Shown here piece after piece: positions 5,494 through 64,000 of a stretch of 64,000 bases of DNA. Positions within the stretch are counted from its first letter, which is position 1; each line of letters opens with the position of its first letter. Under the pieces are notes generated by a model, which made no database searches, was not told the DNA's origin, and worked only from the letters and a program-made list of their open reading frames with translations. The stretch comes from a virus. Made by a program: the position numbers and the translations under genes. Where the stretch lies: the IMG/VR virus record IMGVR_UViG_3300045988_183453, one strand, 5' to 3'.

Positions 5494-6827
5494 GTAAAGA
5501 AGAGCAGAAGCCAAATATTTATCAAATCCCCAAAAACTCGTTTGATACCGGGTATGTGTTGAACGGACAATTCAAAACTCGGAACTTCGTTGAAGGTATC
5601 ATCCTGGCACTACCGTTCTTGGGAATTTTCATTTATGGATGGCATGATTTGGGATGGGATGTACAAAGTACCGTGGCCTATTGCGCAATACTCTGTGCTG
5701 CTGCTTTCCTTGGTGCAGCTCATGGTGTTGGCGGCGATAGCTTGTTTGAGTTTATTCAACGTGTTATCCGTTTCCGGCAAAGTCGCAGAATCTCAAAATA
5801 CAATCCTCGTATCAAAACCGAACTTGAACCGGAATATCTGATTCATGACGGGCGGATGCTCCCGAAAGACAAGCTCAAGCAAATGCTTGGCACTGTAAAG
5901 GGAAAAGTCCTTGGTGAAGAGAACGGTCCTATCAGTTCCGATATTACAGATGAAGAGCTCAAGGTCTTCTACGATGATGACTATGGGTTCCTGGAAAAAC
6001 CGGATGCCCTCAAATCTAAAGCAGAACTCCGTGCTGAAGCAAAACAGCGTGCGAAAGAAGAGAAGGAATACATTAACTCTTTGCCCCGTTCTGAACGCAA
6101 GGCTGCTAGAGAAAAAATTAAGCGTAAGCGTGAGCAGGAAGAGGCTGAGAAGAAGGCAAAAGAGGCAGAGCGCGAACGCATTATTAACGAAGCTATCAAG
6201 AAGCGTCTGGATAAAGCCGAGCGTGTTAAGACCGCACAGTATTACGAGAAGTTCATGGACCCCGACAATGAGCAGGAAGATGACAAGCTGGAAGAGAATA
6301 ACGCTGAACTGAATCCTCAGGCTGTAGAGTTCAAGCCCGTCACTGTAGGGCCGAGCAATAATGTGGTTCAGGATGATGTCGATATCTTTGACAGTGAAGA
6401 AAGCATCGACACCGATGAAGTAGAAGCGAATGTGGAAGCAGATGCGGATACAGAGCTGTTTGAGGACGGCACTGATACCGACATCCAAGCCCCGCAGATT
6501 GATGATGTAGTCTTTGACGATGAAACGGAAGTACTTGACGTCGATGAGGACTGGGATGACTTATCGGTTGATATCCAGGATACTCAGTCTGCACAGCCCG
6601 CAAAGCAGGGCAGGGGACAAGTCGTGAACAGCGATGACGATGTCAGCTTGGATGATGTAGACCTTTTCGATGACAGCACGGTCAGCCGCACAGAGGAAAG
6701 ACCTCAGAACGTCAAAACCTCTGGAAAGACGATGGGCTCGCAAAAGCAGCCGCAAACCACACAGAACAACAGCGATATTGATTATATGTCCTTGAATGAC
6801 ATTTCTATCTTTGATAGTGAGGAGTGA
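5490..6827 (+). CDS. Membrane protein, possible VirB3/PrgI/TcpE-like T4SS component with acidic C-terminal tail
   Basis: RBS GGGGG then ATG at 5490 (MSKEEQ...). Two TM helices near the N-terminus and a long D/E-rich tail; lies immediately upstream of the VirB4-like ATPase. Confidence 0.5.
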   Translation: MSKEEQKPNIYQIPKNSFDTGYVLNGQFKTRNFVEGIILALPFLGIFIYGWHDLGWDVQSTVAYCAILCAAAFLGAAHGVGGDSLFEFIQRVIRFRQSRRISKYNPRIKTELEPEYLIHDGRMLPKDKLKQMLGTVKGKVLGEENGPISSDITDEELKVFYDDDYGFLEKPDALKSKAELRAEAKQRAKEEKEYINSLPRSERKAAREKIKRKREQEEAEKKAKEAERERIINEAIKKRLDKAERVKTAQYYEKFMDPDNEQEDDKLEENNAELNPQAVEFKPVTVGPSNNVVQDDVDIFDSEESIDTDEVEANVEADADTELFEDGTDTDIQAPQIDDVVFDDETEVLDVDEDWDDLSVDIQDTQSAQPAKQGRGQVVNSDDDVSLDDVDLFDDSTVSRTEERPQNVKTSGKTMGSQKQPQTTQNNSDIDYMSLNDISIFDSEE

Positions 6828-6832
6828 AGCCT

Positions 6833-9493
6833 ATGTTTCGATTCAAAAATGGCGGAGAAATCCCCCACGGTGTTGTGGAACAGAGTATCGGTACAATCCC
6901 GCTGACGAAAAAGGAACGCGATGAAATCGCCAAAGAAGAGCGGCGGCGGATGAATCAAAAGCTGGAAGCTCAGAATGAGCGCTATCAAATCATTCGAAGC
7001 ACACAGCGTATCATCCCTATTGAGGATATTTACGGCGGCATTGTTGTGACAAAGGACCACCGATATATCAAAATCATGGAATTTCGCCCTATCAACTTTG
7101 CCTATATGGACGCGGAAACTCAAAACCGTATTATTTCGCTTTTCTATCAAACGTTCAAAGCAACTCCCTGCAATATCCAGTTCAAAACCTTTTCTCGTAA
7201 AGCTGATGTCGAGAATTCAATCGCGACCGTGACGGACTATTACAAAGCAGAAAAGAATCCGAGTCGTAAGCGAATGCTGCAGGCATACATCGGATTGCTT
7301 CGTAAGACGGCTTTGTCCGTTGGTATTACCCGTCGCTTCTTTGTGGTCGTAGAATTCCAGCGCACTATCAGCAACGATGGTTCTAAATTTGAAATGGTTG
7401 TGGCCGACTTGAATGCCGTTGCGGCAAACGTCCGCTCTCACATGGAACAGTGTGGTAATATCTTTATTCCTGCACTTGGTAACCCTGACGGAAACGAGGA
7501 CGCAGGTCTACACCAGCTTTTTTACCAGCTCTTGAACCGTAGAAAAAGTGAGACCATCACGTTCAAGCAGCACATGGACCCCATTGTGGACCGTTATTTT
7601 GAAGCCGAAAAGAATGGCGTTAAGACGTCTTTGCAGGCAACGGAACTGATTGCTCCGGACTGGATTGACTTTACGCATCACGATTACATTGTCATTGATG
7701 GCAAGTTTTATACTTTCGCTTACATTCCCTCGAACGGGTTCAGCCAGCGTGTCTATGCGGGCTGGGTGGCTACGTTCGTAAATGCTGGTGAAGGCATTGA
7801 CGTCGATATGTTCTTTGAGCACATGTCCCGTGAAGCTGTCTTCAATAAAATCAGTACACAGCTTCGTCTGAGCCGTGCAAACGCCATGGACAGTCACGAT
7901 ACTGACTCTGACTATCAGGCGCGTATGGAAAAAATTTCGTCCAGTGAATATATGCTGCGCGGCCTTTCCAGCGGCGAAGAGTTCTATTACCTGTCAATGC
8001 TCATCACTATCGTGGCAGATACAAAGAAGGAACTCGATTACAAGTTCGATGCTTTGAAAAAGCGTATCGAAGGTCAGAGCATGAAGATTCGCCGTGCGGA
8101 TTTCATGATGGAAGAATGCTTCGATTCTTGCCTGCTTCCTCTTGCGAAAATCAATAAGGAGCTGGCAAAGAAATCTCATCGCAATCTTCTGACTTCGGGT
8201 GTTGCATCCTGCTATCCGTTCATCTCGTTTGAAATGCAGGACCCGGGCGGCGTTATGGTCGGTACAAACCATGTCAACAACTCTCTGGTCACCATCGATA
8301 TGTTTGATACCCGCGCTCATGCAAACGCAAACGCCGTTATCTTGGGCTCTTCCGGTTACGGCAAGACTTTCACCGCACAGCTGTTCGCACTACGCTTGTC
8401 TGAGATGGACACGCAGGTGTTTATCATCTCTCCTCTGAAAGGTTTGGAGGACTACGGCGGCGGTTGTAAGGCAGTCAATGGTCAGTTCGTCTCCATGGAC
8501 CCCTCTTCGGACAACAACATCAACATCATGGACATTCGCGCTCCTGACGATGAGGACGCAAAACTGCTGGATGATTATGAGGCTTCCGGTTCCTTCTTGA
8601 CCAAAAAGATTCACACGATTCTTTCGTTCCTGCACCTGGTTGTTCGCAATATGACGCAGGAAGAAGAGCAGCTAATTGACGGCTGCCTGTATGCGACATA
8701 CGCAAAGTTCGGCATTACCCGTGATAACAACTCTATCTACGATAAAGATGGCAACTATAAGGTGATGCCGCTGTTGGAAGATTTGCAGGAAGAAATGAGA
8801 AAAAAACCTGAACTGCATACCGTCTGCAACATCTTGAATCCGCTAATTAACGGTTCTATGGCTTGCTTCAATCACCACACCAACGTGGACCTTGACTCCA
8901 AGTACATCGTATTTGACTTCAATGGCATGAAAGGCTCTTTGCTTACCATGTCTATGTTCGTGGTTCTGGACTTTGTCTGGACGAAAATCAAAGAGGACCG
9001 TACACAGCGCAAAGCCGTATTTATTGACGAATGCTGGAAATTGATTGGCACTGACTCCAACGAGCAGGCAGCTGAAGACGTTGTTGAAATCTTCCGTACG
9101 ATTCGTGCTTATGGCGGTTCCGCTTTTGCTATGACTCAGGATATTTCTCAGTTCTACGAATACAAGGGCGGCAAATACGGCAAGGCAATTATTGGTAACG
9201 CCGATACCAAAATCATTATGCACCTGATTCCGTCCGAAGCAAAAGCCCTTCAGGAAGCCATTCAGCTGACCAGCGTTGAGATGGAAGCGGTATCCAGCCT
9301 GCCGCGTGGTCAAGGTCTGGTTTGCTCTGCATCCGCAAAACTGTTCGTCGATTTTGTGGCCGATGACTATGAAGCCAAGGAAATCACAACCGATGCTAAG
9401 TCCTTCTACGAACGCCGCAAGGCTCTGGAAAAGAAAAAGCGGGAAGAAGAAGAGAAGGCGGCGGAAAATACCGTCATTGATGTTGAAATGTGA
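6833..9493 (+). CDS. VirB4-family conjugal transfer ATPase (TrsE/TcpF/Orf16-like)
   Basis: Walker A VILGSSGYGKTF and Walker B VFIDECWKL; about 885 aa, a size typical for Gram-positive VirB4. RBS GGAGTGA before ATG 6833 (the track uses GTG 6824). Confidence 0.85.
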   Translation: MFRFKNGGEIPHGVVEQSIGTIPLTKKERDEIAKEERRRMNQKLEAQNERYQIIRSTQRIIPIEDIYGGIVVTKDHRYIKIMEFRPINFAYMDAETQNRIISLFYQTFKATPCNIQFKTFSRKADVENSIATVTDYYKAEKNPSRKRMLQAYIGLLRKTALSVGITRRFFVVVEFQRTISNDGSKFEMVVADLNAVAANVRSHMEQCGNIFIPALGNPDGNEDAGLHQLFYQLLNRRKSETITFKQHMDPIVDRYFEAEKNGVKTSLQATELIAPDWIDFTHHDYIVIDGKFYTFAYIPSNGFSQRVYAGWVATFVNAGEGIDVDMFFEHMSREAVFNKISTQLRLSRANAMDSHDTDSDYQARMEKISSSEYMLRGLSSGEEFYYLSMLITIVADTKKELDYKFDALKKRIEGQSMKIRRADFMMEECFDSCLLPLAKINKELAKKSHRNLLTSGVASCYPFISFEMQDPGGVMVGTNHVNNSLVTIDMFDTRAHANANAVILGSSGYGKTFTAQLFALRLSEMDTQVFIISPLKGLEDYGGGCKAVNGQFVSMDPSSDNNINIMDIRAPDDEDAKLLDDYEASGSFLTKKIHTILSFLHLVVRNMTQEEEQLIDGCLYATYAKFGITRDNNSIYDKDGNYKVMPLLEDLQEEMRKKPELHTVCNILNPLINGSMACFNHHTNVDLDSKYIVFDFNGMKGSLLTMSMFVVLDFVWTKIKEDRTQRKAVFIDECWKLIGTDSNEQAAEDVVEIFRTIRAYGGSAFAMTQDISQFYEYKGGKYGKAIIGNADTKIIMHLIPSEAKALQEAIQLTSVEMEAVSSLPRGQGLVCSASAKLFVDFVADDYEAKEITTDAKSFYERRKALEKKKREEEEKAAENTVIDVEM

Positions 9494-24025: not shown

Positions 24026-24106
24026 AAAAGCGCCCTTGCACAAAACATGAGGGAGATTTCCTGGCGTTTGGAAAAAGCACCCCTATGACTTTGAGCTTTG
24101 CCGCAC

Positions 24107-24145
24107 AAAAAGCGAGCCTCCGCTCTTTGGCGGGGGCTCTTCTTG
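24107..24145 (+). terminator. Rho-independent terminator
   Basis: gagcctccgctctttggcgggggctc followed by ttcttgtattc. Confidence 0.5.
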
Positions 24146-24279
24146 TATTCTCAAAAACGTTGAATTCAATTTCACTGAATTCCGATTCAGCATTATTTGG
24201 CGTGGCTCAGCTTGGCCCGGTAGCACGATACCATGGCGGCCGAACACAATGATTCTCCAGAACGGAATTCTCGACATTC

Positions 24280-24298
24280 GGTGCGAATCGTATATAAT
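24280..24298 (+). promoter_or_regulatory. Promoter carrying the element-wide spacer motif (GGTGCGAATCGTATATAAT)
   Basis: TCGACA-N16-TATAAT with GTGCGAATCG in the spacer. Confidence 0.55.
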
Positions 24299-24330
24299 CT
24301 AAATAATAAAACAGTATAGGAATATAGCTA

Positions 24331-24372
24331 AGCCGCCAAGCGAGTGAAATCGTTTGGTGGCTTTTCTTTTTG
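24331..24372 (+). terminator. Terminator closing a short RNA about 65 nt from promoter 24280
   Basis: gccgccaagcgagtgaaatcgtttggtggc followed by TTTTCTTTTT. The tail GGTGGCTTTTCTTTTTG recurs at 16095 and 47440. Confidence 0.5.
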
Positions 24373-24395
24373 CTACGGAAAAGTAGACATTGTAC

Positions 24396-24470
24396 TTGTC
24401 ATGAGCTTGTTGCATACTTGCTACGAACTTGCTAAAAACTTGCTAAGCACTTGCTACGCTTCACCTCGAA
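24396..24470 (+). repeat. Iteron-like direct repeats ACTTGCTA (4 perfect copies plus 2 degenerate) at 10-11 bp spacing
   Basis: acttgtcatg agcttgttgcat acttgctacg aacttgctaaa aacttgctaag cacttgctacg. The last repeat forms a hairpin with gcaagt, followed by T9. Confidence 0.6.
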
Positions 24471-24978
24471 GCAAGTTCATTTTTTTTTGCGCGAAAGAAT
24501 ATCGGATAAGTGACGCTTCCTACTCGTATGACCGAAAGAAAACATGCAAAGACTCTACCATTCTGGTAGGGCTTTTTTGCTGCCCAAAAAGTTGGAAAAA
24601 TGTCGCAAGCGAGCCGCTGAAACCTCGGAATTTTGTCGCAGCCTTTCCGAATATGAGATGTATCTCACAAAAGCGAAATGCGCTGCTTCGTATCTGTGGT
24701 GAGACAATCGGAACAGGCGAATAGCAAAATCTCAGCTGCCGCAAATGCTGTCAAGTTCAAATCACAACTCCCAAAAGTTTCGTTTGGGAAAGCCTGCATT
24801 AAAAGTTTCGTTCTGGAAAATGCAGAGGGGAAAGGAAAATGCCGAAGCATATATGCACTGATTTTCTTCTTGCTATTTGTGCAATCCGCTCAAATTGGCG
24901 ATAAATATTCCCAAAATAAATAAGTCAAAGTGCTTTTGGTGTATAATGGCTCTGACAAACAGAAAAAAGGAGAACACT

Positions 24979-30326: not shown

Positions 30327-30625
30327 TGTTTTTCTCCTCCCACAATTCTTTCTAACATAATTATATCATATTTTACAGATGGACGGGCCAAAATCGCAAC
30401 TTTGTTCATGAATACTTAAACTTTATGCACGAGATTTATTGTTGCCCTAATATATAAAACTAGAACCCCGTCATCTTGGATGGGGCTCTTGAGTTGTAAC
30501 TGGAGGTGTATCTCATTTTGTGCCAGGGGTATTGTATGGTAGTTTTCGAAAATGAGTGCAAAAAAACAAACACCAGAAGTCGAACTCAAAAATATCTTAG
30601 TCTTGGCAAGTTTACCCTTGCGCCG

Positions 30626-30645
30626 CTGTGCGAACTTCGTACAAT
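30626..30645 (+). promoter_or_regulatory. Motif promoter P1a (TTGCGC-N16-TACAAT, spacer CTGTGCGAACTTCG)
   Basis: ctgtgcgaacttcgtacaat. Confidence 0.55.
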
Positions 30646-30651
30646 AAGAAT

Positions 30652-30786
30652 TGTACAAGAGAAACGGCAAGAGACATTTGTAGTGATTATAGTTGGTCGC
30701 CACGAATCGATGCCGTGTCTGCTTGCGCATAATTACCTCTTTTCGAAGCCCACAGGTCATTCTCTCACCTGTGGGTTTTGTTTATT
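30652..30786 (+). ncRNA. Candidate short RNA (~135 nt) between P1a and a strong intrinsic terminator
   Basis: Terminator hairpin cccacaggtcattctctcacctgtggg (30748-30773) plus TTTTGTTTATT. No credible ORF with an RBS. Confidence 0.4.
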
Positions 30787-30794
30787 GCGGAATC

Positions 30795-30812
30795 GTGCGA
30801 ATTGCAGACAAT
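30795..30812 (+). promoter_or_regulatory. Motif promoter P1b (GTGCGAATTGCAGACAAT)
   Basis: TTGCGG-N16-GACAAT immediately after the terminator. Confidence 0.55.
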
Positions 30813-30883
30813 TAAAGACAGAGCGATTGTGAGATGGGGCGATACCGATGCAGTAGGGATGAGAATCTTAGCAGCTAAAAGAG

Positions 30884-30958
30884 TCAACAACCCCGCCTAA
30901 ACCGGTTCACCGGTTATAGACGGGGCTTGCGGGGTAACCCGTAAGCTCGGTTGATTAG
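30884..30958 (+). ncRNA. Conserved structured RNA-like module, copy A
   Basis: caacaaccccgcctaaaccggttcaccggttatagacggggcttgcggggtaacccgtaagctcggttgattagcc. Nested hairpin (ccccgcc[aaccggt-ttca-accggtt]ggcgggg) plus hairpin gcttgcgggg-taa-cccgtaagc. About 92% identical to 43118-43195. Confidence 0.45.
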
Positions 30959-31138
30959 CCTAAGTCTGCTGCTCCGGCGGCAGGAAACTACGTTGTGTAC
31001 TAATAATATAGGCACCTTATCCATGCTCCACAAGTGGTGAGCTCTGCAGGCGTTTCGTTAAACATCTCCGAGGGGAGGAGAAGTGCGAGCGTCATGTCGA
31101 AAGGCTAAAACAGTGCATAACATTGGCGAAGTGGACCA

Positions 31139-31178
31139 CAGGACGCAAGTCCTGACTTATAGTTTTATTACTATTTTA
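31139..31178 (+). terminator. Possible leader terminator before the flotillin gene
   Basis: caggac-GCAA-gtcctg hairpin followed by a U-rich tract (acttatagttttattactatttta). Weak. Confidence 0.35.
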
Positions 31179-32842: not shown

Positions 32843-32970
32843 AGACAACATGAAAAGAGGGTGACTCGAAAGAGCCATCCTTTTTTCTGTTGTGACGCAA
32901 ACGAAAAGTTCATGGTAGCCATCCAATTTGGGTAACTGTCTTTTTTGCATGTTAAGGCTTTGTTGCTGAA

Positions 32971-32989
32971 TTGTGCGAATTGAAGATAA
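32971..32989 (+). promoter_or_regulatory. Motif promoter P2 (TGTGCGAATTGAAGATAAT)
   Basis: TTGCTG-N16-GATAAT. Confidence 0.55.
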
Positions 32990-33044
32990 TTAAAAACAAA
33001 AGATGCTTTGTATCAAATCGATTGAAACCGAAGAGGTGAAGTTA

Positions 33045-38413: not shown

Positions 38414-38474
38414 TATGCATGGCAGGTTCTTTTCGGAGCCTGCCTTCTTATTTCGCAAAAATAGTTGCCCATTT

Positions 38475-38493
38475 GTGCGAATTGCAGACAATC
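38475..38493 (+). promoter_or_regulatory. Motif promoter P3 (TGTGCGAATTGCAGACAAT) with a structured ~125-nt leader
   Basis: TTGCCC-N16-GACAAT. The leader has hairpins cccacgatttcaatcgtggg and ccgcatacaaggcagcgagttatgcgg. Confidence 0.55.
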
Positions 38494-38620
38494 AGAATTG
38501 ACACCTCCCACGATTTCAATCGTGGGATTCCCGGGTGGCGGTGGCAAGGCTTATCACCATGCCGCATACAAGGCAGCGAGTTATGCGGTTCCCCACCATC
38601 CGCTACGGGTGTAGCGCACA

Positions 38621-38866
38621 ATGAGCATCCAGCCTAAAAGGGTAAAGCATAAAGCAGTCAACAAGGTAAACCTTAATCCGGGTGATTTAGTCTCTCTCAA
38701 CGGAGAAGTTCTCGTTGTGCATGGTACTCATACCAATAAAAAGGGTGCTGTAAATGTAGAATTCAAAACACCCGGAAAAAGCGGTCAAAAATCTGCAAGC
38801 CTTAAAAAACTTAAAATTGTAAAAGCAGCAGATTCCATGCATTCTGCATGGGAAAAAATATCTTAA
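38621..38866 (+). CDS. Hypothetical small basic protein
   Basis: 81 aa ORF. Confidence 0.45.
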   Translation: MSIQPKRVKHKAVNKVNLNPGDLVSLNGEVLVVHGTHTNKKGAVNVEFKTPGKSGQKSASLKKLKIVKAADSMHSAWEKIS

Positions 38867-39635: not shown

Positions 39636-39676
39636 CTCCGATAACTGGTATTCACAGACAATATCATGTTGCGAAA

Positions 39677-39696
39677 CTGTGCGAATCGCAGACAAT
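39677..39696 (+). promoter_or_regulatory. Motif promoter P4 (CTGTGCGAATCGCAGACAAT)
   Basis: TTGCGA-N16-GACAAT. Confidence 0.55.
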
Positions 39697-42748: not shown

Positions 42749-42823
42749 GAAATTTTTTCCCGTGTGAGCAGTGACGCTCATGCGGGAATTTTTTGTAATT
42801 TTCTATTGTCAATCTGTGCGAAT

Positions 42824-42843
42824 TGCGTACAATGAAAAATATA
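42824..42843 (+). promoter_or_regulatory. Motif promoter P5 (CTGTGCGAATTGCGTACAAT)
   Basis: TTGTCA-N16-TACAAT. Confidence 0.6.
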
Positions 42844-42866
42844 AACCAAAAATATATCTTATCGTT

Positions 42867-42903
42867 GTCCCGCATGAGTTGTTTGTGCGGGACTTTTTGT
42901 TTG
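42867..42903 (+). terminator. Leader (promoter-proximal) intrinsic terminator / attenuator
   Basis: gtcccgcatgagttgtttgtgcgggac followed by TTTTTGTTT, between P5 and the start codon at 42921. Confidence 0.55.
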
Positions 42904-42920
42904 CGGAAAGGAAATGCACT

Positions 42921-43127
42921 ATGTACGGTTTATCAGAAGAAAGCTTAACGATTGTTGGTGTTATTTTGATTGTGGTTGGTGTCGCTATGATTGGTTGGGG
43001 ATTTGAATGGAATCAGGACATTACCAATGATAAACGGGTCGGAACCGTTGTCAGAGACATTGGCGTTATGGTTTTGGCAACCGGCATCATATTTGTGATG
43101 CAGCGGGCAGTCAACAACCCCGCCTAA
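42921..43127 (+). CDS. Small membrane protein (68 aa)
   Basis: MYGLSEESLTIVGVILIVVGVAMIGWGFEW… after the RBS GAAAGGAAA. Its last 6 codons overlap the conserved structured module. Confidence 0.4.
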   Translation: MYGLSEESLTIVGVILIVVGVAMIGWGFEWNQDITNDKRVGTVVRDIGVMVLATGIIFVMQRAVNNPA

Positions 43128-44505: not shown

Positions 44506-44707
44506 TGCTTGCAATGCATTGCGGGTTCCATATAATTAAAACCGTAATCAAAAAGAACTATCTTTTGCGAGGACTCCGTTGCCGACGGTGTTCTCGTTTT
44601 CTTTTTTCAAGACAAAAGGCTGCCGCCCAGTAATGGGTAGCAGCCTTCTTTTTTTTGATTGTGTCAGCCAATATGGCAGCAAATCACCTTACCGCGTTCA
44701 GAACGAT

Positions 44708-46594
44708 TCACTGCACAATCTCGCCAAGGTCGTTTGCATATTTCGGGCCACACATCATGAAGTAGTTGACGGGGCCGTACTCCAGACCGAGCTCCTGCGC
44801 GTATGCCTTGATAGCTTCCAGAACGTCCTCTTTCTTGAGGCCAAACTTGGAATGCAGACGGGCAAACTCTTTGTCAGAGACAGAAACGCAAGAGCAATTT
44901 TCTGCATCGGTTTCTTTGCTGCCCAGCATCCCGTCAAAGATGTCCTGCCCTGCACAGAGAATCGTCTCATTGTTCATCGCATAGGCGATAACGGAAGCCT
45001 TACAGTCAAAGTCGCTGTCTTCCACAAGGAAATCCTCAGGGCGGCCGTGACGCTCAACAACGTTTTCATAGATGTCCCGGAGTTCGATAGGAGCAGAAGG
45101 AGCGGTCAGAGCTGCTTTATGAAGGCGCATGAATTCCACAAACTTTTCATTCGAGAGGGTATCGGTATAAAAGCCGATGCCGGAAACGCGAACCTTCACT
45201 TCGCTGGCAAAGTAATCGTCAATTTTGGAAACGATTTTCTGCTGGACCCGCTTGTATGCTTCCTGAACATTGGAAGCCGTGTAAAATACCGGGAACTTCA
45301 TGATGTCGATTCCCTCCGGCAGACTCGCGTCATAGGCCGCATCAATGCCACCTCGCAGCGCCGGAACCGCGTCATGCAGCTCTTTCACAGAAGAAATGTA
45401 TCCGGTAATGTACAGCTCATCGTTTTTGCTGTAATGCCCGATAAGTCCCACATAGAGGGTCTGCATCAGCATCCGCTTGAAGCTGAACCAACAAAGACGA
45501 ATGGGTAGAATGACATTAGCAGCCGTACCTTCCGCACGATAGGTGCCGGGGGCAGAGACCTTTTCCAGCAGAATCTGGTCGTTCTTGTCACCGTATTTTT
45601 CCTTGAAAAGAGCTTGAAGAATTTCAGTGGACGAAAGAGGAGTGGACATTGGAATCGTTTCATTCAGAAAAGAGAGGAATGCATCCACGTTGTCTTTCTG
45701 CCATGCGTCATCAGACATGCTTGCACGCTGCATAGAGAGCTTGTCTTTCCCGTCGTCAGGCAAGGGCTTATACCCACAGGCGATACGAAGCTCGTTCTCC
45801 GTGACAGCATCCGTTGCGCTTGCAATTTTCTTGATGGTATTTTCGGTCGGCTGAGCTTTTGCGTTGCCATTCACGAGGCTGCTGATATACCCACGAGTCA
45901 GTCCTGCCTGAAACGCAAACTTACCCTGTGTTCGGGTTCCGATGGCTTTTTTGACCAGCGATGCCAGCCTTTGAAAGTCGGGCTCTTTGGGAAAGGTGGC
46001 CTCCGTATCCTTATTGCTGTTCTTTTCAAGTACCGACTTGTCCCAACCGGTGACAAGAGAATACCCAATATCCCTCAAGGATTGATAGGCAACCCCATTC
46101 TGGTCAAGAGCCGGGGAGTATGTACCGCTGTTATCTTCCAGCTGCTCTACTGCGTCACGCACCATCCTTGCTTCGTTCATCAGGATGACGTCCGGGGCTT
46201 CAAGCCGGGCAAGACTCTTGTACCGATTATTGAGGCGCTCGACTCGTGCGGCCAATGCAGTGATGTTGGCAACTTGGTCTTCCGTTGCATGGGCAGAGAT
46301 ATCTGCACCAAGTTCAAAATGGTTCAGTGCAGGAATATCCACGCCTTTGCTCTTGGCGAATTCCACAATGGCTTCCGCGCCATAGAAACGCTTCTCATGG
46401 GCTGCGACAACTTTCGTTATCGTGTCGGCCGAGTTGTCCAGCTCAAGCACTTCACCTTTTCCGGCATCCTCGACATAACACCTGGCGTTGGTGAGAAAGC
46501 CTTTCAAAAAATCAGCATCCACATCCAGCTTCTTAGCGATGCCGGGCAGCTGCTTATAGAAAATCACGGGCGTGGCGAGGTTAACAGAAATCAT
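44708..46594 (-). CDS. Large protein with central XRE-type HTH (628 aa)
   Basis: Central GLTRGYISSLVNGNAKAQPTENTIKKIASATDAVTENELRIACGY, an HTH_XRE pattern. The flanking domains are unassigned. Confidence 0.55.
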   Translation of the reverse strand: MISVNLATPVIFYKQLPGIAKKLDVDADFLKGFLTNARCYVEDAGKGEVLELDNSADTITKVVAAHEKRFYGAEAIVEFAKSKGVDIPALNHFELGADISAHATEDQVANITALAARVERLNNRYKSLARLEAPDVILMNEARMVRDAVEQLEDNSGTYSPALDQNGVAYQSLRDIGYSLVTGWDKSVLEKNSNKDTEATFPKEPDFQRLASLVKKAIGTRTQGKFAFQAGLTRGYISSLVNGNAKAQPTENTIKKIASATDAVTENELRIACGYKPLPDDGKDKLSMQRASMSDDAWQKDNVDAFLSFLNETIPMSTPLSSTEILQALFKEKYGDKNDQILLEKVSAPGTYRAEGTAANVILPIRLCWFSFKRMLMQTLYVGLIGHYSKNDELYITGYISSVKELHDAVPALRGGIDAAYDASLPEGIDIMKFPVFYTASNVQEAYKRVQQKIVSKIDDYFASEVKVRVSGIGFYTDTLSNEKFVEFMRLHKAALTAPSAPIELRDIYENVVERHGRPEDFLVEDSDFDCKASVIAYAMNNETILCAGQDIFDGMLGSKETDAENCSCVSVSDKEFARLHSKFGLKKEDVLEAIKAYAQELGLEYGPVNYFMMCGPKYANDLGEIVQ

Positions 46595-46837
46595 GGTGTA
46601 CTCCTTTCAAACGTGTCATTTACTGTACAAAACTGTCATCTTATGTAATTATAATAGCACATCTCGCACTAAAAAGCAAGCGCTAATTTACAACAAATGA
46701 CAATAAAACACACAAGATGACATATTTGAGCAAAGCGATTGATTCTTGAGCTTTCCGGCTTGGTGACAGAACAAGCTCTATGCGCCTTGTCTTTACCACA
46801 ATTTTGCCACAGTTTTGCCTTGTGCATCCGTGCAAAT

Positions 46838-46857
46838 TGAATGCAATTAAAGATGTC
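46838..46857 (+). promoter_or_regulatory. Variant motif promoter P6 (CCGTGCAAATTGAATGCAAT)
   Basis: TTGTGC-N16-TGCAAT, in the divergent region between 44708..46594(-) and 46897(+). Confidence 0.45.
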
Positions 46858-46896
46858 GAAAGATAAAGCACAACACACAAAAAAGGAAATTTCACT

Positions 46897-47217
46897 ATGA
46901 ACACCAGTATTTTGAAACTCGAAGCCACTGTAATCCGCCCCAAAGACGATGATGAACTTGACGACCTTGCCGCATCCATCAGCTTTCCCGTCGAATGCGA
47001 TGATGAAGCAATTGGCGAGGCTCTGGGCGACCATGACCTGATGGCCTATGTTGTCGGAGAGCTACACGACCTCGTTGTCCGAATGCGTCCCGAATGGCTG
47101 GATAATGAGGATACTAGCCTGACCATCAAGGCATTCCTGGACGAAGCTGAGTACCAGACGTTCAAGGGCCTTGTCGCGATGAAAGAAGACAGCTACACCT
47201 TTGATATTGAGGGCTAA
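46897..47217 (+). CDS. Small acidic protein (106 aa)
   Basis: RBS AAAAAGGAAA. Confidence 0.5.
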   Translation: MNTSILKLEATVIRPKDDDELDDLAASISFPVECDDEAIGEALGDHDLMAYVVGELHDLVVRMRPEWLDNEDTSLTIKAFLDEAEYQTFKGLVAMKEDSYTFDIEG

Positions 47218-47340: not shown

Positions 47341-47352
47341 ACTTGACCTGAT

Positions 47353-47370
47353 GTGCGAATTTTATACAAT
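47353..47370 (+). promoter_or_regulatory. Motif promoter P7 (TGTGCGAATTTTATACAAT)
   Basis: TTGACC-N16-TACAAT. Confidence 0.55.
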
Positions 47371-47376
47371 CGGATT

Positions 47377-47455
47377 TGTACGAGAGATACTATTCACACA
47401 ATAGGATTCACACGAAGCTGCTCGGGAGCCGTATGGCTGCTGGGTGGCTTTTTCT
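47377..47455 (+). ncRNA. Candidate short RNA (~80 nt) from P7, ending in a T-run terminator
   Basis: Contains AGATACTA…ATAGGATTCACA, shared with the leader at 54915-54965. 3' end …GGGTGGCTTTTTCTTTT. Confidence 0.4.
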
Positions 47456-47458
47456 TTT

Positions 47459-47477
47459 GTGCGAGTTGCGTACAATA
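47459..47477 (+). promoter_or_regulatory. Motif promoter P8 (TGTGCGAGTTGCGTACAAT)
   Basis: Directly after the P7 RNA terminator; weak -35. Confidence 0.5.
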
Positions 47478-49564: not shown

Positions 49565-49688
49565 AGCGGAACACCAACGACAACAACCATTAAGGCTGTA
49601 CAAGATTATGCGCTCATTCGCAAGTCGCGGGTGGGCGTTCTTTTTTGCCCAAAAAACAAAAATAAACATAGTAAAAAGCCTTGCACAT

Positions 49689-49708
49689 CTGTGCGAATCA
49701 GATATAAT
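49689..49708 (+). promoter_or_regulatory. Motif promoter P9 (CTGTGCGAATCAGATATAAT)
   Basis: TTGCAC-N16-TATAAT. Confidence 0.6.
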
Positions 49709-49732
49709 AACCCTAATAAGATAAAAATTGTG

Positions 49733-49773
49733 CCCTGACGGCATCTGAATTGGATGCTGCCGGGGCATTTTTG
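49733..49773 (+). terminator. Leader hairpin plus T-run (attenuator-like) before the helicase gene
   Basis: ccctgacggcatctgaattggatgctgccgggg followed by cATTTTTG. Confidence 0.45.
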
Positions 49774-49794
49774 TTTGTTAAGGAGAATTTGGCT

Positions 49795-54674: not shown

Positions 54675-54885
54675 GCGAAAAGACATCAAAATTGTGCTGG
54701 AAACCATCTGGTATCTAATTCTGCCGGTGTTTATTTTTGTACTTAACATTAGATATTGGCATGGGTATCTTGCGAATCCCGGCTGGTCCTTGACCCATCC
54801 GTCATATGTTGTTCTTGGATTTGTCTTGAGCGCTGCATTGTGCTTTGAGATTGTATATATCGACATCAAGTTTGGGGAAAAATAG
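54673..54885 (+). CDS. Small two-TM membrane protein (70 aa)
   Basis: Overlaps the previous stop; hydrophobic helices. Confidence 0.4.
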   Translation: MRKDIKIVLETIWYLILPVFIFVLNIRYWHGYLANPGWSLTHPSYVVLGFVLSAALCFEIVYIDIKFGEK

Positions 54886-54895
54886 CGCTTGCCAA

Positions 54896-54913
54896 AATAT
54901 ACGAACGCCGTAC
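54896..54913 (+). promoter_or_regulatory. Degenerate motif promoter P10 (ATACGAACGCCGTACAAT)
   Basis: TTGCCA-N16-TACAAT. Confidence 0.5.
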
Positions 54914-54969
54914 AATGTAAAGTGTGAACAGATACTAAGCAATCAGTAGGATTCACAATCTGTATTTTA

Positions 54970-55008
54970 AGCGGACTTATCCCATCACGGGGTAGGTCCG
55001 CTTTTTTT
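54970..55008 (+). terminator. Leader terminator before the MBL-fold lipoprotein gene
   Basis: agcggacttatcccatcacggggtaggtccgct followed by TTTTTTTG. The leader shares AGATACTA…TAGGATTCACA with the 47377 RNA. Confidence 0.6.
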
Positions 55009-55026
55009 GTTGAAAGGAGAAAAAGT

Positions 55027-56187
55027 ATGAAACTCAAAAACAATCTATTCCGGAGCACGGCGGCAATCATCGCTACGCTCTTTGCACTCAGCTTCACCGG
55101 CTGCGGTCAGAATCCGATAATATCGGAAAGTCCATCCAGTATCGGGGTCGTCTCAGAAAGTACTGTGAGCAGTGACCAGACGGCTGGCGGTTCGGTGGAC
55201 GGCAGCTTTACCATTCATTTTATAGACGTAGGGCAGGCGGATTCCGCTCTTGTTACCTGCGACGGCCACTCAATGCTCATTGATGGCGGCAATGTCGATG
55301 ATTCTAACGTTCTTTACTCTGTCATGCAGCGTGAAACCGATGGACACCTGGATTATGTCGTTGGGACTCACGCGCACGAAGACCACATCGGCGGCTTGTC
55401 CGGTGCTTTTGAGGCCGTCTCTGCGGACATGACTCTATGCCCTGTGACAGAATACGACAGCAAAGCATTTCGGGACTTTGCAAGCTACGCGGAGCAAAAA
55501 GGCGGAGGCATCACGATACCGGATGTGGGTGAAACCTACACTCTAGGGGAAGCAGAATTCACGATAGTTGGTGTTAATTCTGTTCCCGATGATACGAACA
55601 ATACATCGATTGTTTTGCGTATTGTCTATGGAGACACCTCGTTCCTCTTTACCGGAGATGCGGAACAGGAAGCGGAAAACGTGATGCTTGCATCGGGACA
55701 AGACATTCAGTCAACAGTTCTGAAAGTAGGGCATCATGGCTCAAGTACATCTACCTCAGAGGCTTTTCTGGATGCGGTAAATCCAACATATGCTGTGATT
55801 TCTTGTGGCGCAGGGAACAGTTACGGCCACCCGCATCAGGAAACACTCGACAAGCTGCAAAACAAAGGTGTCGAGGTTTATCGCACAGACCTGCTGGGTG
55901 ATATTTACTGCACCTCGGATGGCAAAGAGGTAAGTTTCACTTCCGGTGAATATCATGATGAGAATCGGATTGAAGCCGGTTCTGCTGCAGAGTCCAATGA
56001 TGAACAAAACAGCAGACCTCTTGTAATAGACGAAACATACGTTCTGAATACAAGCACTATGAAGTTTCACAAACCCGATTGCTCTGTAGTCGAGTCCATG
56101 AGTCAAAAGAATAGAATCGACTATATGGGGCCCCGCGATGAGCTCATCCAGGAAGGGTATTCGGCGTGCGGGATTTGCAAACCTTAA
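55027..56187 (+). CDS. Secreted lipoprotein with MBL-fold metallo-hydrolase domain (ComEC-type extracellular beta-lactamase fold) and Cys-containing C-terminal domain
   Basis: Lipobox LSFTGC; HxHxDH motif in VVGTHAHEDHIGGL; C-terminal …PDCSVV…GYSACGICKP. Confidence 0.7.
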   Translation: MKLKNNLFRSTAAIIATLFALSFTGCGQNPIISESPSSIGVVSESTVSSDQTAGGSVDGSFTIHFIDVGQADSALVTCDGHSMLIDGGNVDDSNVLYSVMQRETDGHLDYVVGTHAHEDHIGGLSGAFEAVSADMTLCPVTEYDSKAFRDFASYAEQKGGGITIPDVGETYTLGEAEFTIVGVNSVPDDTNNTSIVLRIVYGDTSFLFTGDAEQEAENVMLASGQDIQSTVLKVGHHGSSTSTSEAFLDAVNPTYAVISCGAGNSYGHPHQETLDKLQNKGVEVYRTDLLGDIYCTSDGKEVSFTSGEYHDENRIEAGSAAESNDEQNSRPLVIDETYVLNTSTMKFHKPDCSVVESMSQKNRIDYMGPRDELIQEGYSACGICKP

Positions 56188-59144: not shown

Positions 59145-59301
59145 TAATCCTAGATATTTGTATCACTCATACAAGGCCGGAAAACTACTGGATTGATTTT
59201 CAAAAGCAATAGCAATCGAGACCACTGCCCCGAAAAGGGTAGTGGTCTTATTTTTTGCACAATACTTACCATAAATTACCAGAAAGAAAAACATTGTGCA
59301 T

Positions 59302-59321
59302 CTGTGCGAATTGCATATAAT
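59302..59321 (+). promoter_or_regulatory. Motif promoter P11 (CTGTGCGAATTGCATATAAT)
   Basis: TTGTGC-N16-TATAAT. Confidence 0.6.
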
Positions 59322-59388
59322 ACAAAATATAGAACGAAAGGCATCAAAAAATATCGTTGGTCGGGCAAAATTCGACCGAAAGGCTAGG

Positions 59389-59421
59389 GCAGGCTCAGTT
59401 TTGAACCTGCTCTTTCTTTTT
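59389..59421 (+). terminator. Leader terminator before the HTH-repeat gene trio
   Basis: gcaggctcagttttgaacctgc followed by TCTTTCTTTTT. A second upstream hairpin is tcggtcgggcaaaattcgaccga. Confidence 0.5.
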
Positions 59422-59433
59422 ATCGGAGGCTTT

Positions 59434-59961
59434 ATGTCAAACAAAGAGGAACGCATGAACCGCAATAAAAGCATCATCGAAGATTACAAAAATGGAAAGC
59501 CGATTTTAGAAATCGCGAGGGAATATAATCTTTCAGAAACGATGTGCTACAAGATTCTAAAAGGTACGCAGGAGCCGCCCCGTTATTTTGAAAAAAAGAG
59601 GAAGAGACTTACCACTCGAAATGAGCAGATTGTTAAACAGTATAAAGGCGGTATGACGGCCAGAGAATTGGGCAAGATGTACGGCATTTCCATGCAGCGT
59701 ATTTATGCAATCTTGCATTCGAGCGGAGAGTACGAAAGCCAAAAATACAATCATATTGAAACGACTCTCAAAAAAGAGAAAAAGATGCGGAACCAAACTT
59801 TTCTTGATGCTTACAAGAAAAATCCTCGAAAATCGATTATCGAGTTGAGCAGGGAGGTAAATATCAGCCCTTCACTAGGTTACCTTATCCTTCATCAAAA
59901 TGGGATTTACCAGTATAACGTAAAAGCCAGAGCTAAGGAGAATAGCGAAAATGCCGATTAA
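59434..59961 (+). CDS. Tandem HTH-repeat protein (3 repeats)
   Basis: Three ~50-aa repeats of the pattern Y(K/E)xGx(S/T)xxEIAxEYxISxxxxYxIL, resolvase/sigma-region-4-like HTHs. Confidence 0.6.
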   Translation: MSNKEERMNRNKSIIEDYKNGKPILEIAREYNLSETMCYKILKGTQEPPRYFEKKRKRLTTRNEQIVKQYKGGMTARELGKMYGISMQRIYAILHSSGEYESQKYNHIETTLKKEKKMRNQTFLDAYKKNPRKSIIELSREVNISPSLGYLILHQNGIYQYNVKARAKENSENAD

Positions 59962-60469
59962 CAAGATTACCCACATGTGTCTAACTCATGACAAAGTCAG
60001 AGCACGAAATGAAAAGATGCTGGAGGATGCCAAGGACGGTATGTCCCAGGAACAGCTGGCCGAAAAGTATCAAATTTGTGTTTCTACTGTCCGATATAGT
60101 CTGAAGGACTTTTACAAAGAACAGGCCCGGCAGAGGAAAGCAAAGAAGAAAGCCTGGCAAACCCAGATGATTCATGAATATGAGATGGGCGCAAAATCTC
60201 CGGAGCTCCAGGAAAAATACGGCATCAGTGGAACGCTCTTTTATCGGATTCTTCATGCGCATGGAAAGAATGGCCGACAAATCCACAGCCAAAACCGTAT
60301 CGAGACTGGCAAGAAAAGAAACGCCGAGATGGTCAGGAAATACAAAAACGGCGTTTCTGTCAAAGAGCTTGCGGAAGAATACGGGCTCAAAAAGGGAAGC
60401 GTATATCGCGCCATGAAGCGGTATAGTCCAGGCCCAGGGAAAAGTAAAAGTTGTCAAAGCGAGGAATAA
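59951..60469 (+). CDS. Tandem HTH-repeat protein (3 repeats), paralog
   Basis: DAKDGMSQEQLAEKYQICVSTVRYSL; EYEMGAKSPELQEKYGISGTLFYRIL; KYKNGVSVKELAEEYGLKKGSVYRAM. Overlaps the upstream gene. Confidence 0.6.
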   Translation: MPINKITHMCLTHDKVRARNEKMLEDAKDGMSQEQLAEKYQICVSTVRYSLKDFYKEQARQRKAKKKAWQTQMIHEYEMGAKSPELQEKYGISGTLFYRILHAHGKNGRQIHSQNRIETGKKRNAEMVRKYKNGVSVKELAEEYGLKKGSVYRAMKRYSPGPGKSKSCQSEE

Positions 60470-60473
60470 TTGC

Positions 60474-61427
60474 ATGGCTGCATCAAAGAAAGATGTTGCG
60501 AAGCAGCAGGTCAAAGAAGACCGCGAAAAGGTTCGGGAAATGTATCTTTCTGGCAAAACTGTCAAGGAAATCGCCAAGGAAACGTATTTTTCAAGCTCTT
60601 ATTGCTATGCCATGGTGAGAGACCTAGCAAAAGAAAAGAATCTTGCAAAGAAAGCAAAAAGAGCACCTCTCGACGAAGCTATGATTCAAGATGCGAAAGC
60701 CGGGATGACGGTTGCTGAAATCGCAAAGAAGCATGGCGTGACCTATCAGCAGTGCTACTATACTGTTTCTGAATACGCTCAAGCTACGATTAAGAAGAAC
60801 AAGAAAAAGCAGTCTGCTGCCACGAAAGTTCGCAATGCGGCTATGTTGGAAGATGCGAAAGCCGGAATGACTGATAAGGAAATCGCCAAAAAATACTTTT
60901 TGTCTCGAAGCAGTGTCCGTACCGTCCTTGCAGGGCATTTACATACAAATTCCAAAAAGTTGGATGAAAGGCGCAAGGCGATTCTTGCGGATTATGAGGC
61001 AGGAACGTCCTCAAAAGACATCTGTGAAAAATACGGTATTTCAAAATCCACTCTTTACAAGGACATACGCCAAATTGGAAAAACCTGTCAGGAATACTAT
61101 CACAAGGCGCTGAAAGACAAGACCAATCAAAGGAATTCCGATATTCGAAGCAAAATCGAAAGAGGGGTCTCGGTCAGCACTATTGCCAAGGAATACGGAA
61201 TCTCTAAAACGGCGATTTATGAAACGTTTCATCAGGAAAATGTCAGAGCTGGAATTTTACAGAAACGCGGCCGTCCGCGAAAAAACACGGAACGTAATGC
61301 ACTGATTGCTAAACGCCACAGGGAAGGCGAGAAGGTGCAGGCGCTTGCCACTGAATATAATCTCTCTGTTTCGACGGTAAACACTATTTGCAGTAGAAAC
61401 AAAAATCAGAATATAACCTCATATTAA
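60474..61427 (+). CDS. Tandem HTH-repeat protein (6 repeats), paralog
   Basis: Six repeats (…DAKAGMTVAEIAKKHGVTYQQCYY…, …DYEAGTSSKDICEKYGISKSTLYKDI…, etc.). Confidence 0.65.
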   Translation: MAASKKDVAKQQVKEDREKVREMYLSGKTVKEIAKETYFSSSYCYAMVRDLAKEKNLAKKAKRAPLDEAMIQDAKAGMTVAEIAKKHGVTYQQCYYTVSEYAQATIKKNKKKQSAATKVRNAAMLEDAKAGMTDKEIAKKYFLSRSSVRTVLAGHLHTNSKKLDERRKAILADYEAGTSSKDICEKYGISKSTLYKDIRQIGKTCQEYYHKALKDKTNQRNSDIRSKIERGVSVSTIAKEYGISKTAIYETFHQENVRAGILQKRGRPRKNTERNALIAKRHREGEKVQALATEYNLSVSTVNTICSRNKNQNITSY

Positions 61428-63294: not shown

Positions 63295-63373
63295 TCGTGG
63301 GATGAAAGGCGTTAAGAACGAATCAATTCACGCTGCATATCCGCAAGATGGACAGCATTTTTTTGCTGTCAAA

Positions 63374-63393
63374 GCGTGCGAATTGCGTACCAT
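63374..63393 (+). promoter_or_regulatory. Motif promoter P12 (GCGTGCGAATTGCGTACCAT) directly upstream of tnpB
   Basis: 17 of 19 identical to P5; the tnpB RBS AAAGGAGG follows. Confidence 0.55.
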
Positions 63394-63429
63394 AGATAGT
63401 AGATTCTAAAGAAAAGGAGGCTACTACTC

Positions 63430-64000
63430 ATGCGTCTGGTTGTTAAAACTTACAAGTATAAGCTGTACAACAGTAAAAAGAACAGATACCTGGTGCGCCA
63501 GATTGAACTTGCCTCCGAGATTTGGAATTTTTGCATTGCTATGCGGCGTATGTACTATTTGGTCTATGGCAAAACGCTTAAAGCCAATGATTTGAAAAAG
63601 TACATTGCTAAAATCTGCAAGCGCCGCAAGTGGGCACATTGGCATAATCTCGGCAGCCAGGCGATTCAGGATGTGGTGGAACGGGTTGACCGTGCCTATA
63701 AAGCCTATTTCGATAATAAGAAAAAGGAGCATCCAAAAAAGAAGTCCCTACCAAAATTCAAGAAGCGTGAACTGTACAAAAGTTTTACACTCAAGCAAGC
63801 AGGCTACAAGTTTGAAGGAAAAGGCCGCATTACCATCAATGGCAAAAGGTATCGGTATTTTGATTCTCGGCCATTGAAAGGTAAAGTGAAAACCTTAACC
63901 GTCAAGCGCGACAATTTGGGCGACATCTATATTTTTGCCGTCACGCAGGAAGAATACAATGAAGTCCTTCCACGAGCAGGTAAAGCTGTCGGGATGGATT
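63430..64000 (+). CDS. tnpB: TnpB (IS200/IS605 OrfB family RNA-guided nuclease-like protein), N-terminal 190 aa, truncated by the window end
   Basis: MRLVVKTYKYKLYNSKKNRYLVRQIELASEIWNFCI… matches the OrfB_IS605 N-terminal pattern (yKfrlyP.k.q…r.vyN). Also …KFKKRELYKSFTLKQ…GKVKTLTVKRDNLGDIYIFAV. The frame stays open to the window end and is not in the ORF track for that reason. Confidence 0.75.
   Translation, partial: MRLVVKTYKYKLYNSKKNRYLVRQIELASEIWNFCIAMRRMYYLVYGKTLKANDLKKYIAKICKRRKWAHWHNLGSQAIQDVVERVDRAYKAYFDNKKKEHPKKKSLPKFKKRELYKSFTLKQAGYKFEGKGRITINGKRYRYFDSRPLKGKVKTLTVKRDNLGDIYIFAVTQEEYNEVLPRAGKAVGMD

Follow-up and report, generated by a model that had tools for sequence, protein, structure and literature searches.

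Promoter-terminator cassettes ahead of cargo genes in a large conjugative element of the human gut are probable transcription attenuators

The 64,000-nucleotide stretch of DNA analysed here (IMG/VR virus record IMGVR_UViG_3300045988_183453; this whole stretch is called the window) comes from a large conjugative element frequently met in metagenomes of the human gut. The cargo genes of this element appear to be expressed from modular cassettes, which comprise a promoter carrying a recurrent sequence motif, a leader of 25-110 nt, an intrinsic terminator and, 17-40 nt further on, a Shine-Dalgarno sequence (SD) and start codon. Most transcripts would end as RNAs of about 60-140 nt and the gene would be made by read-through alone, so that strong promoters would be kept gated. 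Leader terminators normally mark regulated genes, and we consider it likely that these are real leader attenuators that need read-through. The fuller reading, in which the cassettes are transcription attenuators with locally regulated read-through, is the one we tentatively prefer. The original prediction had favoured, for such leaders, a regulon under processive antitermination by a Q-like or LoaP/NusG-paralog-like factor; the attenuator leaders proved to be recurrent and conserved, but nothing that was tested supports the processive regulon.

The predicted features on which this reading is built are as follows.
42806..42833, + strand: motif promoter TTGTCAATCTGTGCGAATTGCGTACAAT of the gene at 42921 (10/12 in a sigma-70-like scan; motif alignment)
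42867..42903, + strand: leader terminator, with a hairpin at 42867-42893 (11-12 bp, GC-rich) followed by TTTTTGTTTG; SD 42905-42914, ATG 42921
42757..42788, + strand: upstream terminator insulating the 42806 cassette (13 pairs; -20.6 kcal/mol)
49681..49708, + strand: motif promoter of the UvrD-like helicase gene
49730..49779, + strand: helicase leader terminator, hairpin 49730-49768 plus TTTTGTTTGTT; ATG 49795 (-25.2 kcal/mol, z = -6.27)
54889..54916, + strand: MBL-fold lipoprotein gene promoter; spacer motif degenerate (10/12)
54969..55010, + strand: MBL leader terminator, hairpin 54969-55003 plus TTTTTTTGT; ATG 55027 (15 pairs; -25.5 kcal/mol, z = -6.28)
59294..59321, + strand: motif promoter of three helix-turn-helix (HTH)-repeat genes
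59382..59421, + strand: HTH-repeat leader terminator, hairpin 59382-59417 plus U-run; ATG 59434 (-15.3 kcal/mol, z = -3.65)
47343..47476, + strand: P7/P8 unit, made of P7 (47343-47370), a degenerate class A-like leader, a terminator (47414-47451) and P8 (47449-47476), which overlaps the U-run (z = -4.73)
30618..30812, + strand: P1a/P1b unit, made of P1a (30618-30645), a structured leader of about 130 nt, a terminator (30744-30780) and P1b (30785-30812) (z = -5.04)
24271..24373, + strand: motif promoter with a weak -35, and terminator 24326-24367 (-24.1 kcal/mol, z = -5.22); about 600 nt downstream are gene-free
44509..44607, + strand: degenerate motif promoter and terminator 44567-44597 (-17.3 kcal/mol, z = -3.54), facing the 3' end of a convergent regulator gene

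Promoters and transcription start sites are predictions from sequence; the hairpins, the U-runs and their positions were read directly. Eight promoter-proximal sites (42867, 49730, 54969, 59382, 47414, 30744, 24326 and 44567) have the hairpin and U-run of an intrinsic terminator, with energies of -15 to -25 kcal/mol, equal to those of gene-end terminators, and 5-8 T; compared with dinucleotide shuffles, the leader folds gave z-scores of -3.3 to -6.3. The hairpin at 54969-55003 was the best-scoring match in the terminator scan. A hairpin plus U-run between promoter and start codon had been claimed for five genes, and folds, energies and z-scores bear this out at four of them (42867-42903, 49730-49779, 54969-55010 and 59382-59421). 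The claim fails for the flotillin gene, as the sequence at 31139-31178 is a weak 6-bp hairpin (z = -2.56) with no adjoining U-run, located at the 3' end of a HEARO RNA. Between the tandem promoters P1a and P1b, and likewise between P7 and P8, a terminator intervenes (30744-30780 and 47414-47451), as had been noted. The proposal of one leader pattern shared by multiple operons holds for four genes, but of the eight terminators two are gene-less and two are followed by a second promoter.

The 42867 hairpin (-16.3 kcal/mol; leader fold z = -3.25) lies 34 nt past the -10 of promoter 42806-42833 and 28 nt ahead of ATG 42921. At the 42867, 49730, 54969 and 59382 sites, SD and ATG are found 17-28 nt past the hairpin (mostly 16-40 nt in related leaders), a gap too small for another promoter, so that the gene at each of these sites would depend on read-through. 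A terminator of the upstream gene precedes the cassettes (42757-42788, 49610-49638, 59218-59249), which makes the unit a succession of terminator, promoter, leader, terminator, SD and gene. For the 24271-24373, 44509-44607, P1a and P7 units, short transcription unit is a better description than operon leader, since the first of them is followed by gene-free DNA, the second meets a convergent gene, and P1a and P7 are followed by a second promoter. The 44509-44607 cassette is kept in relatives at about 40% protein identity. Leader peptides were considered and rejected: a direct reading of the short leaders at 42867, 49730 and 59382 (class B) showed zero ORFs (open reading frames).

Recurrence and conservation were likewise observed directly, in related loci (numbered L below). 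Motif-promoter leaders of the window and of fetched related loci were clustered into 53 distinct types. A terminator precedes the start codon in 22 of them, compared with 0-3 (about 1) in twelve dinucleotide-preserving shuffles, which puts the pattern well beyond chance; a terminator is never present in leaders shorter than about 60 nt. In the L067 ortholog of the 42921 leader a U-A pair is replaced by C-G, a compensatory change, and the hairpin and U-run are kept. In helicase leader orthologs the base of the stem (RCCCUG...CAGGGY) is kept and the apical helices differ, with hairpin and U-run retained. The HTH-repeat leader terminator is kept in 7/8 leader variants and replaced in L050.

The cassettes also behave as modules. 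The helicase cassette (promoter, leader, terminator and SD; 49681-49794 in the window) is duplicated as one piece in L021, L025, L031 and L048, where the duplicates flank an inserted gene of about 1.3 kb (L021:8546, L025:4453, L031:8550 and L048:8550). This points to cassette-mediated gene insertion, presumably by recombination. As in PeSL (promoter-early stem-loop) elements, a promoter/stem-loop composite is repeated at an indel boundary, and more than 50 distinct leaders share the promoter. Relatives of about 40% identity have TGnTATAAT promoters, no motif and no leader terminators, save for one conserved cassette beside the regulator gene. Because they co-occur in more than 20 leader families, are jointly lost in relatives and are duplicated as a whole, the promoter motif and the terminators appear to be functionally linked.

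The motif itself is a recurrent 28-nt promoter-like sequence, TTG-N6-(T/C)GTGCGAA(T/C)-N5-(T/G)A(C/T)AAT, with a -35/-10 spacing of 16 nt. The short form of the consensus is TTG-N6-TGTGCGAAT-N5-TAyAAT, and it is of the housekeeping-sigma type. Its copies in the window, and those of them that differ in the -10, are:
24271, 30618, 30785, 32963, 38465, 39669, 42806, 47343, 47449, 49681, 59294 and 63366, + strand: motif promoters
44509, 46820 and 54889, + strand: degenerate motif copies
upstream of the gene 44708-46594, minus strand: variant motif promoter TTGCTTTTTAGTGCGAGATGTGCTATTAT
32963..32990, + strand: motif promoter with -10 GATAAT and a short, terminator-less leader
38465..38492, + strand: motif promoter with -10 GACAAT, leader terminator absent
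39669..39696, + strand: motif promoter with -10 GACAAT and a short, terminator-less leader
63366..63393, + strand: motif promoter with -10 TACCAT and a short, terminator-less leader, upstream of an ORF starting MRLVVKTYKYKLYNSKKNRYLVRQIELA

The structure of leader 38498-38625 is not significant (z = -1.6). The ORF starting MRLVVKTYKYKLYNSKKNRYLVRQIELA (63366-64000) runs off the window and presumably resembles the N-terminus of TnpB/IS605 OrfB-like proteins.

A general host promoter feature was rejected as the nature of the motif: a search of 185,579 genomes gave 19 matches, compared with about 17 estimated by hand from base frequencies. As the motif occurs at chance frequency in this genome collection, it is specific to the element family. 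An extracytoplasmic function (ECF) sigma reading, with GCGAAC as -35 and GTACGAT as -10, was rejected because the spacing would be about 20 nt, because the motif occurs without GTACGAT, and because helix P1 of the leader RNA described below needs GUACGA to be transcribed. A sigma-H-like promoter was rejected, the AGGA -35 being absent. The idea that TGTRCGA is a dispersed operator was rejected, as outside promoters it shows no enrichment (22 matches vs 15.3 +/- 4.1 expected). A literature search on the motif strings and the class A sequence returned nothing relevant.

One group of leaders, class A, contains a conserved structured RNA.
54917..55010, + strand: class A leader RNA of the MBL gene, with a 5' stem UGUGAA:UUCACA, a AUUCACAAU linker, and terminator 54969-55003 with its U-run

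From the predicted +1, class A leaders read UGUACGAUAGAUAMC, two small variable hairpins, UCGUACA, AUUCACAAUU(YY)GC, a terminator whose 5' arm starts GGCRGACUU, and UUUUUG. That the structure begins at the predicted +1 supports the promoter call. A covariance model (R1) was built from an alignment of 31 copies (A1), and a larger alignment (A2) holds 69 distinct sequences. Searched against 790 kb of related contigs, R1 gave 85 matches at E < 1e-3, and a locus of about 11 kb can contain as many as 6-7; class A copies are always upstream of an ORF, and these ORFs are mutually unrelated. In the window, R1 matched 54917-55010 (47.6 bits, E = 2e-7; as this is a seed row, it matches by construction) and, marginally, the P7 leader at 47371-47456 (12.4 bits).

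The class A terminator helix is under clear constraint: 98.9-99.1% of cells are paired, and compensatory changes, a direct observation, affect 6/11 pairs in the 31 sequences and 9/11 pairs in the 69 distinct sequences. Double-change cells number 49 (vs 15.9 +/- 4) and 134 (vs 36.5 +/- 7.5), respectively; 0/500 shuffles reached the observed values, and slid controls were also far below. Upstream, two variable hairpins (P2 and P3), fixed in position, lie between the invariant P1 strands UGUACGA and UCGUACA in 31/46 parsed copies, and helix P3 varies in sequence (GGCGC:GCGUU, AGCAC:GUGCU, AAGGG:CCUUU), which points to a probable three-way junction as the 5' domain. When the terminator 3' arm is left out, about 26/31 leaders pair the linker with the base of the 5' arm (GGCRGA), a predicted antiterminator of 5-7 bp. 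The riboswitch or attenuator leaders that had been offered as an alternative to processive antitermination predict a conserved structured RNA, and this one leader class has such a domain; the alternative antiterminator structures that were to be looked for by folding are predicted in class A, with weak alignment support, but not in class B.

Class A had no Rfam match, either at gathering thresholds in the window and five class A-rich loci or at an E-value threshold in 54880-55030; in the scans of the window and the five loci HEARO alone was matched. The class A model gave zero matches in the relatives of about 40% identity (L211-L213). The genes downstream are diverse and do not form the coherent set expected of a riboswitch, nor is the RNA of a described riboswitch class. 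Neither the leader RNA of class A nor the architecture of the cassettes appears to have been described. Class A is thus a well-populated structured RNA with strong covariation of its terminator, and a candidate for a new protein- or ligand-responsive attenuator.

In the reading that we prefer, read-through would most likely be set leader by leader and not by one processive modification of the polymerase. Local control is favoured because every gene or short operon comes with a promoter of its own and ends in an equally strong terminator, because class A owns a conserved RNA domain, and because Q, NusG-paralog (NusG_N/KOW), ANTAR and CAT-type proteins were all absent when about 80 window ORFs were scanned against Pfam; the replicon is of about 250 kb, of which about 190 kb lie beyond the 64-kb window. 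The scan agrees with the earlier statement that no antiterminator gene is recognised in the window. In class A, the linker would pair with the base of the terminator 5' arm, and a factor or ligand may stabilise the small antiterminator hairpin. In class B (42867, 49730, 59382), a trans-acting factor or mere partial termination must apply, since these short leaders show no alternative fold. The promoter spacer is probably an operator of an element-encoded DNA-binding protein, which would tie all cassettes into one regulon. Several points weigh against this reading as a whole. Promoters, start sites and termination are all predicted. Class B leaders have no common RNA motif for a local factor to recognise, and no RNA-binding antiterminator was recognised in the window. 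Helix P1 of class A is near-invariant and shows almost no covariation, which leaves its pairing unproven, and the sequence could act at the DNA level. The antiterminator helix is paired in 77.5% of cells vs 75.1 +/- 0.6 in shuffles (1/500), and is not significant on the smaller alignment. Finally, 4/8 of the promoter-proximal terminators in the window are not directly ahead of a gene, which fits stand-alone small RNAs equally well.

In a family of mobile elements present across many human gut metagenomes, a large part of the cargo genes carries leader terminators together with a single promoter motif. If read-through is regulated, they would provide a simple switch that sets the time at which a megaplasmid-like element turns on its accessory, anti-defence and repair genes.

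It is possible, although we think it unlikely, that the terminators are constitutively leaky and have no dedicated regulator; they would damp strong promoters, insulate neighbouring cassettes and travel with the promoter in a recombination-prone, PeSL-like cassette, where they could supply homology for cassette shuffling. In the window, a proximal terminator is present at 7/7 TAyAAT promoters and at 0/5 GAyAAT/TACCAT promoters; across the family the association of -10 type with leader type is weaker (TA-type 18/23 vs 14/29, a hand tally with no statistical test). A sensor would not fit into the short class B leaders, which have no RNA motif in common; the duplicated cassette lies at an indel boundary, as PeSLs do (PMC2839356, PMC4122927), and no regulator gene was recognised. 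However, a weaker promoter would do the same more simply, the terminators look fully efficient, with long GC stems and 5-8 U, and a structured domain of about 50 nt with an invariant linker, kept in 69 distinct class A copies, would be needless in a passive attenuator.

Processive antitermination would have a factor engage the polymerase at the motif promoters, the spacer motif serving as a Q-binding-like element, so that all leader terminators are overridden together, in the manner of lambda Q or of N, put, LoaP or conAn; we find this improbable. The lambda Q-binding element lies between -35 and -10, and the spacer motif occupies this position in about 14 promoters (one on the minus strand, the rest on the + strand), with the terminator close behind the promoter. 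Hexamers resembling a -10 occur early in the transcripts (TATAAA after 42833, TATAGA after 59321 and the invariant TACGAT of class A), but A/T-rich hexamers of this kind are expected by chance in such leaders. Motif and leader terminators are lost together in distant relatives, and one protein of the element has an HTH fused to a copy of the clamp helices of RNA polymerase beta'. Two reports document processive antitermination in Gram-positive conjugative elements (PMC8191782, PMC11658703). Against this, nearly every gene has its own promoter and equally strong terminators, which would be redundant for a terminator-resistant polymerase; the leader terminator is missing at 5/13 motif promoters of the window and about 31/53 in the family; class A, with its own conserved RNA domain, points to leader-specific control; and the scan of about 80 ORFs yielded neither Q nor NusG/KOW nor any other known antiterminator domain.

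Two loci encode proteins that could act in such a system.
44708..46594, minus strand: candidate transcription factor (628 aa), in which residues 110-156 are a beta' clamp-helix copy and residues 222-269 an HTH_3 domain
59434..61427, + strand: three HTH-repeat genes with 2-6 tandem HTH units (HTH_23/HTH_28/Mor-like/sigma-70 region 4-like; Pfam); candidate binders of the promoter motif

The beta' clamp helices are the docking site for sigma region 2 and NusG/RfaH. Residues 110-156 of the 628-aa protein are about 50% identical to them (phmmer against PDB, E = 2e-5), and the phmmer matches to clamp helices comprise 73 distinct beta'/gamma subunit sequences. The AlphaFold model (predicted local distance difference test, pLDDT, 77) contains a helical hairpin, and its best 50 Foldseek matches in PDB were all beta' or the homologous cyanobacterial gamma; the C-terminal part of 350 aa had no matches. 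Thousands of proteins make up the family, always of about 626 aa and encoded on contigs of up to 350 kb, with conservation of the clamp-helix residues. The gene is the sole long minus-strand gene of its region; in relatives it is again alone on its strand, and it is a conserved core gene. This protein may plausibly have a role in the promoter-motif/terminator system, and its beta' clamp-helix/HTH make-up marks it as an unusual protein that might interfere with sigma or NusG. Next to it, 46595-46896 is a divergent promoter region, in which the variant motif promoter of the minus-strand regulator is set against the degenerate copy 46820-46847 for the + strand gene at 46897; its layout resembles a cI/cro-type switch region. 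The HTH-repeat genes themselves sit behind a motif promoter and a leader terminator, and a PDB sequence search with the first HTH-repeat protein gave weak matches only. An element-wide, terminator-gated regulon can be imagined, in which an element-encoded factor (the clamp-helix/HTH protein or an HTH-repeat protein) recognises the spacer motif, the class A RNA or both, and the polymerase then passes the leader terminators. We consider this a doubtful proposal; if true, it would reveal a Q-like or NusG/sigma-decoy mechanism undescribed in Gram-positive bacteria, as well as a new class of cis-regulatory RNA.

Finally, the promoter and terminator units could encode small RNAs, about 60-140 nt long, that serve as antisense or trans regulators, in replication control or as decoys, and whose position ahead of genes is incidental. 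This might be argued from the 24271-24373 unit, behind which about 600 nt are non-coding and contain iteron-like repeats, from 44509-44607, which meets the 3' end of a convergent gene, from 30618-30787 and 47343-47457, each followed by a second promoter able to serve the gene alone, and from the HEARO RNA, likewise driven by a motif promoter. We give it a low probability, as four cases in the window and most of the related leaders have the SD 10-25 nt past the U-run with no alternative promoter, the cassette moves together with its SD ahead of different genes, and 85 class A copies are directly upstream of unrelated ORFs.

Right behind the 24326 terminator, inside the non-coding region 24100-24960, five copies of CTTGCTA, mostly spaced by 11 nt, are found at 24370-24458. 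This stretch comprises about 800 nt without a convincing gene and a further terminator at 24549-24574, and the repeats look like iterons or a centromere- or origin-like site.

The flotillin leader differs from the cassettes described above.
30883..31141, + strand: HEARO (IscB/IsrB-type omega) RNA, downstream of P1b (Rfam RF02033, 96.4 bits vs a gathering score of 83)

HEARO is an insertion of about 290 nt (about 30884-31176) in this leader, which is otherwise identical in L103, without the insertion. No IscB/IsrB ORF lies beside it, the neighbours being flotillin (Band_7) and two small minus-strand ORFs without a Pfam match. A second HEARO is present at L193:8505-8751, and HEARO-like starts are found behind motif promoters in L021:4252.

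The window encodes a VirD4-type coupling protein (1489-3657) and a VirB4/TraG-like ATPase (6824-9493). Its accessory genes include a Y-family polymerase, NADAR, RlaP, NYN, an MBL-fold protein, the UvrD-like helicase, VWA and flotillin, and the genes are on the + strand almost throughout. A megablast search of 40-60 kb gave zero DNA-level matches among PLSDB plasmids, and the coupling protein is about 30% identical to its counterparts on Clostridium plasmids. The helicase query recruited 71 human-gut metagenome loci at 95-98% identity, on contigs of up to 280 kb, and the promoter motif query recruited more than 120 IMG/VR stretches, from contigs of 30-390 kb. This recruitment across gut contigs identifies a widespread, very large conjugative element, filed as viral in some catalogues. 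Near the start of the window, a hairpin at 50-76 (-16.7 kcal/mol) followed by ATTTTTATT lies 9 nt upstream of the start codon (ATG 86) of a gene that precedes the type IV secretion system coupling protein; it is an intercistronic terminator-like element, and no motif promoter for it is visible inside the window. In the genome collection, DYBQ01000001.1 (Clostridiales metagenome-assembled genome (MAG) HRGM_Genome_2451; L007, L013, L017) is the sole contig with several motif promoters, one of which is followed by a leader terminator; it may come from a host or be a relative that was integrated or binned. In Butyricicoccus pullicaecorum, each of the MAGs has a single motif-promoter copy.

Among known systems, late control in the lambdoid phages lambda, 82 and 21 relies on PR', with a Q-binding element, a sigma-dependent promoter-proximal pause and the terminator tR'. 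The cassettes resemble PR' in having a DNA element inside the spacer, a short initial transcript, a near-promoter intrinsic terminator and genes that need read-through. They differ in that about 14 such promoters are present per 64 kb, no Q homolog was found, the host is of Firmicute type, each gene has its own terminator, and the pause element is only putative. In IncP plasmids, the kor regulon uses one operator repeated in many plasmid promoters; here too, many promoters of a single plasmid share one short DNA motif, which implies co-regulation across the plasmid, but the motif is non-palindromic, no KorA/KorB homolog was identified, and the kor system is without leader terminators.

At the RNA level, class A is similar to the ribonucleic antiterminator (RAT)-terminator of BglG/LicT and to riboswitch platforms in its structured 5' domain, the pairing of linker and 5' arm, and the covarying terminator followed by the SD. 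Unlike these, it has no Rfam match, precedes unrelated cargo genes in many copies per element and has a weak alternative helix, and no CAT or ANTAR protein was seen. In pLS20 (conAn) and Tn916, terminators in or ahead of operons are overridden, according to excerpts of the reports (PMC8191782, PMC11658703, PMC8955417). These are, like the element studied here, Gram-positive conjugative elements with terminators inside or ahead of operons. As far as the descriptions in these excerpts allow them to be set apart, conAn and Tn916 involve one large RNA element, with or without a protein, acting processively on one long conjugation operon, whereas dozens of short independent cassettes, mostly on cargo genes, are found here; the Rfam scan of the window gave no conAn-type match, no reference sequences being compared.

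In T4-type phages, PeSLs are promoter/stem-loop composites located between accessory genes, at indel boundaries (PMC2839356, PMC4122927). Their order is terminator then promoter, whereas in the cassettes a terminator also stands behind the promoter, within the 5' leader, and both the kind of replicon and the host are different. The two have in common a short conserved promoter and a terminator-like stem-loop that are repeated among accessory genes, an association with indel boundaries, and modular gene shuffling.

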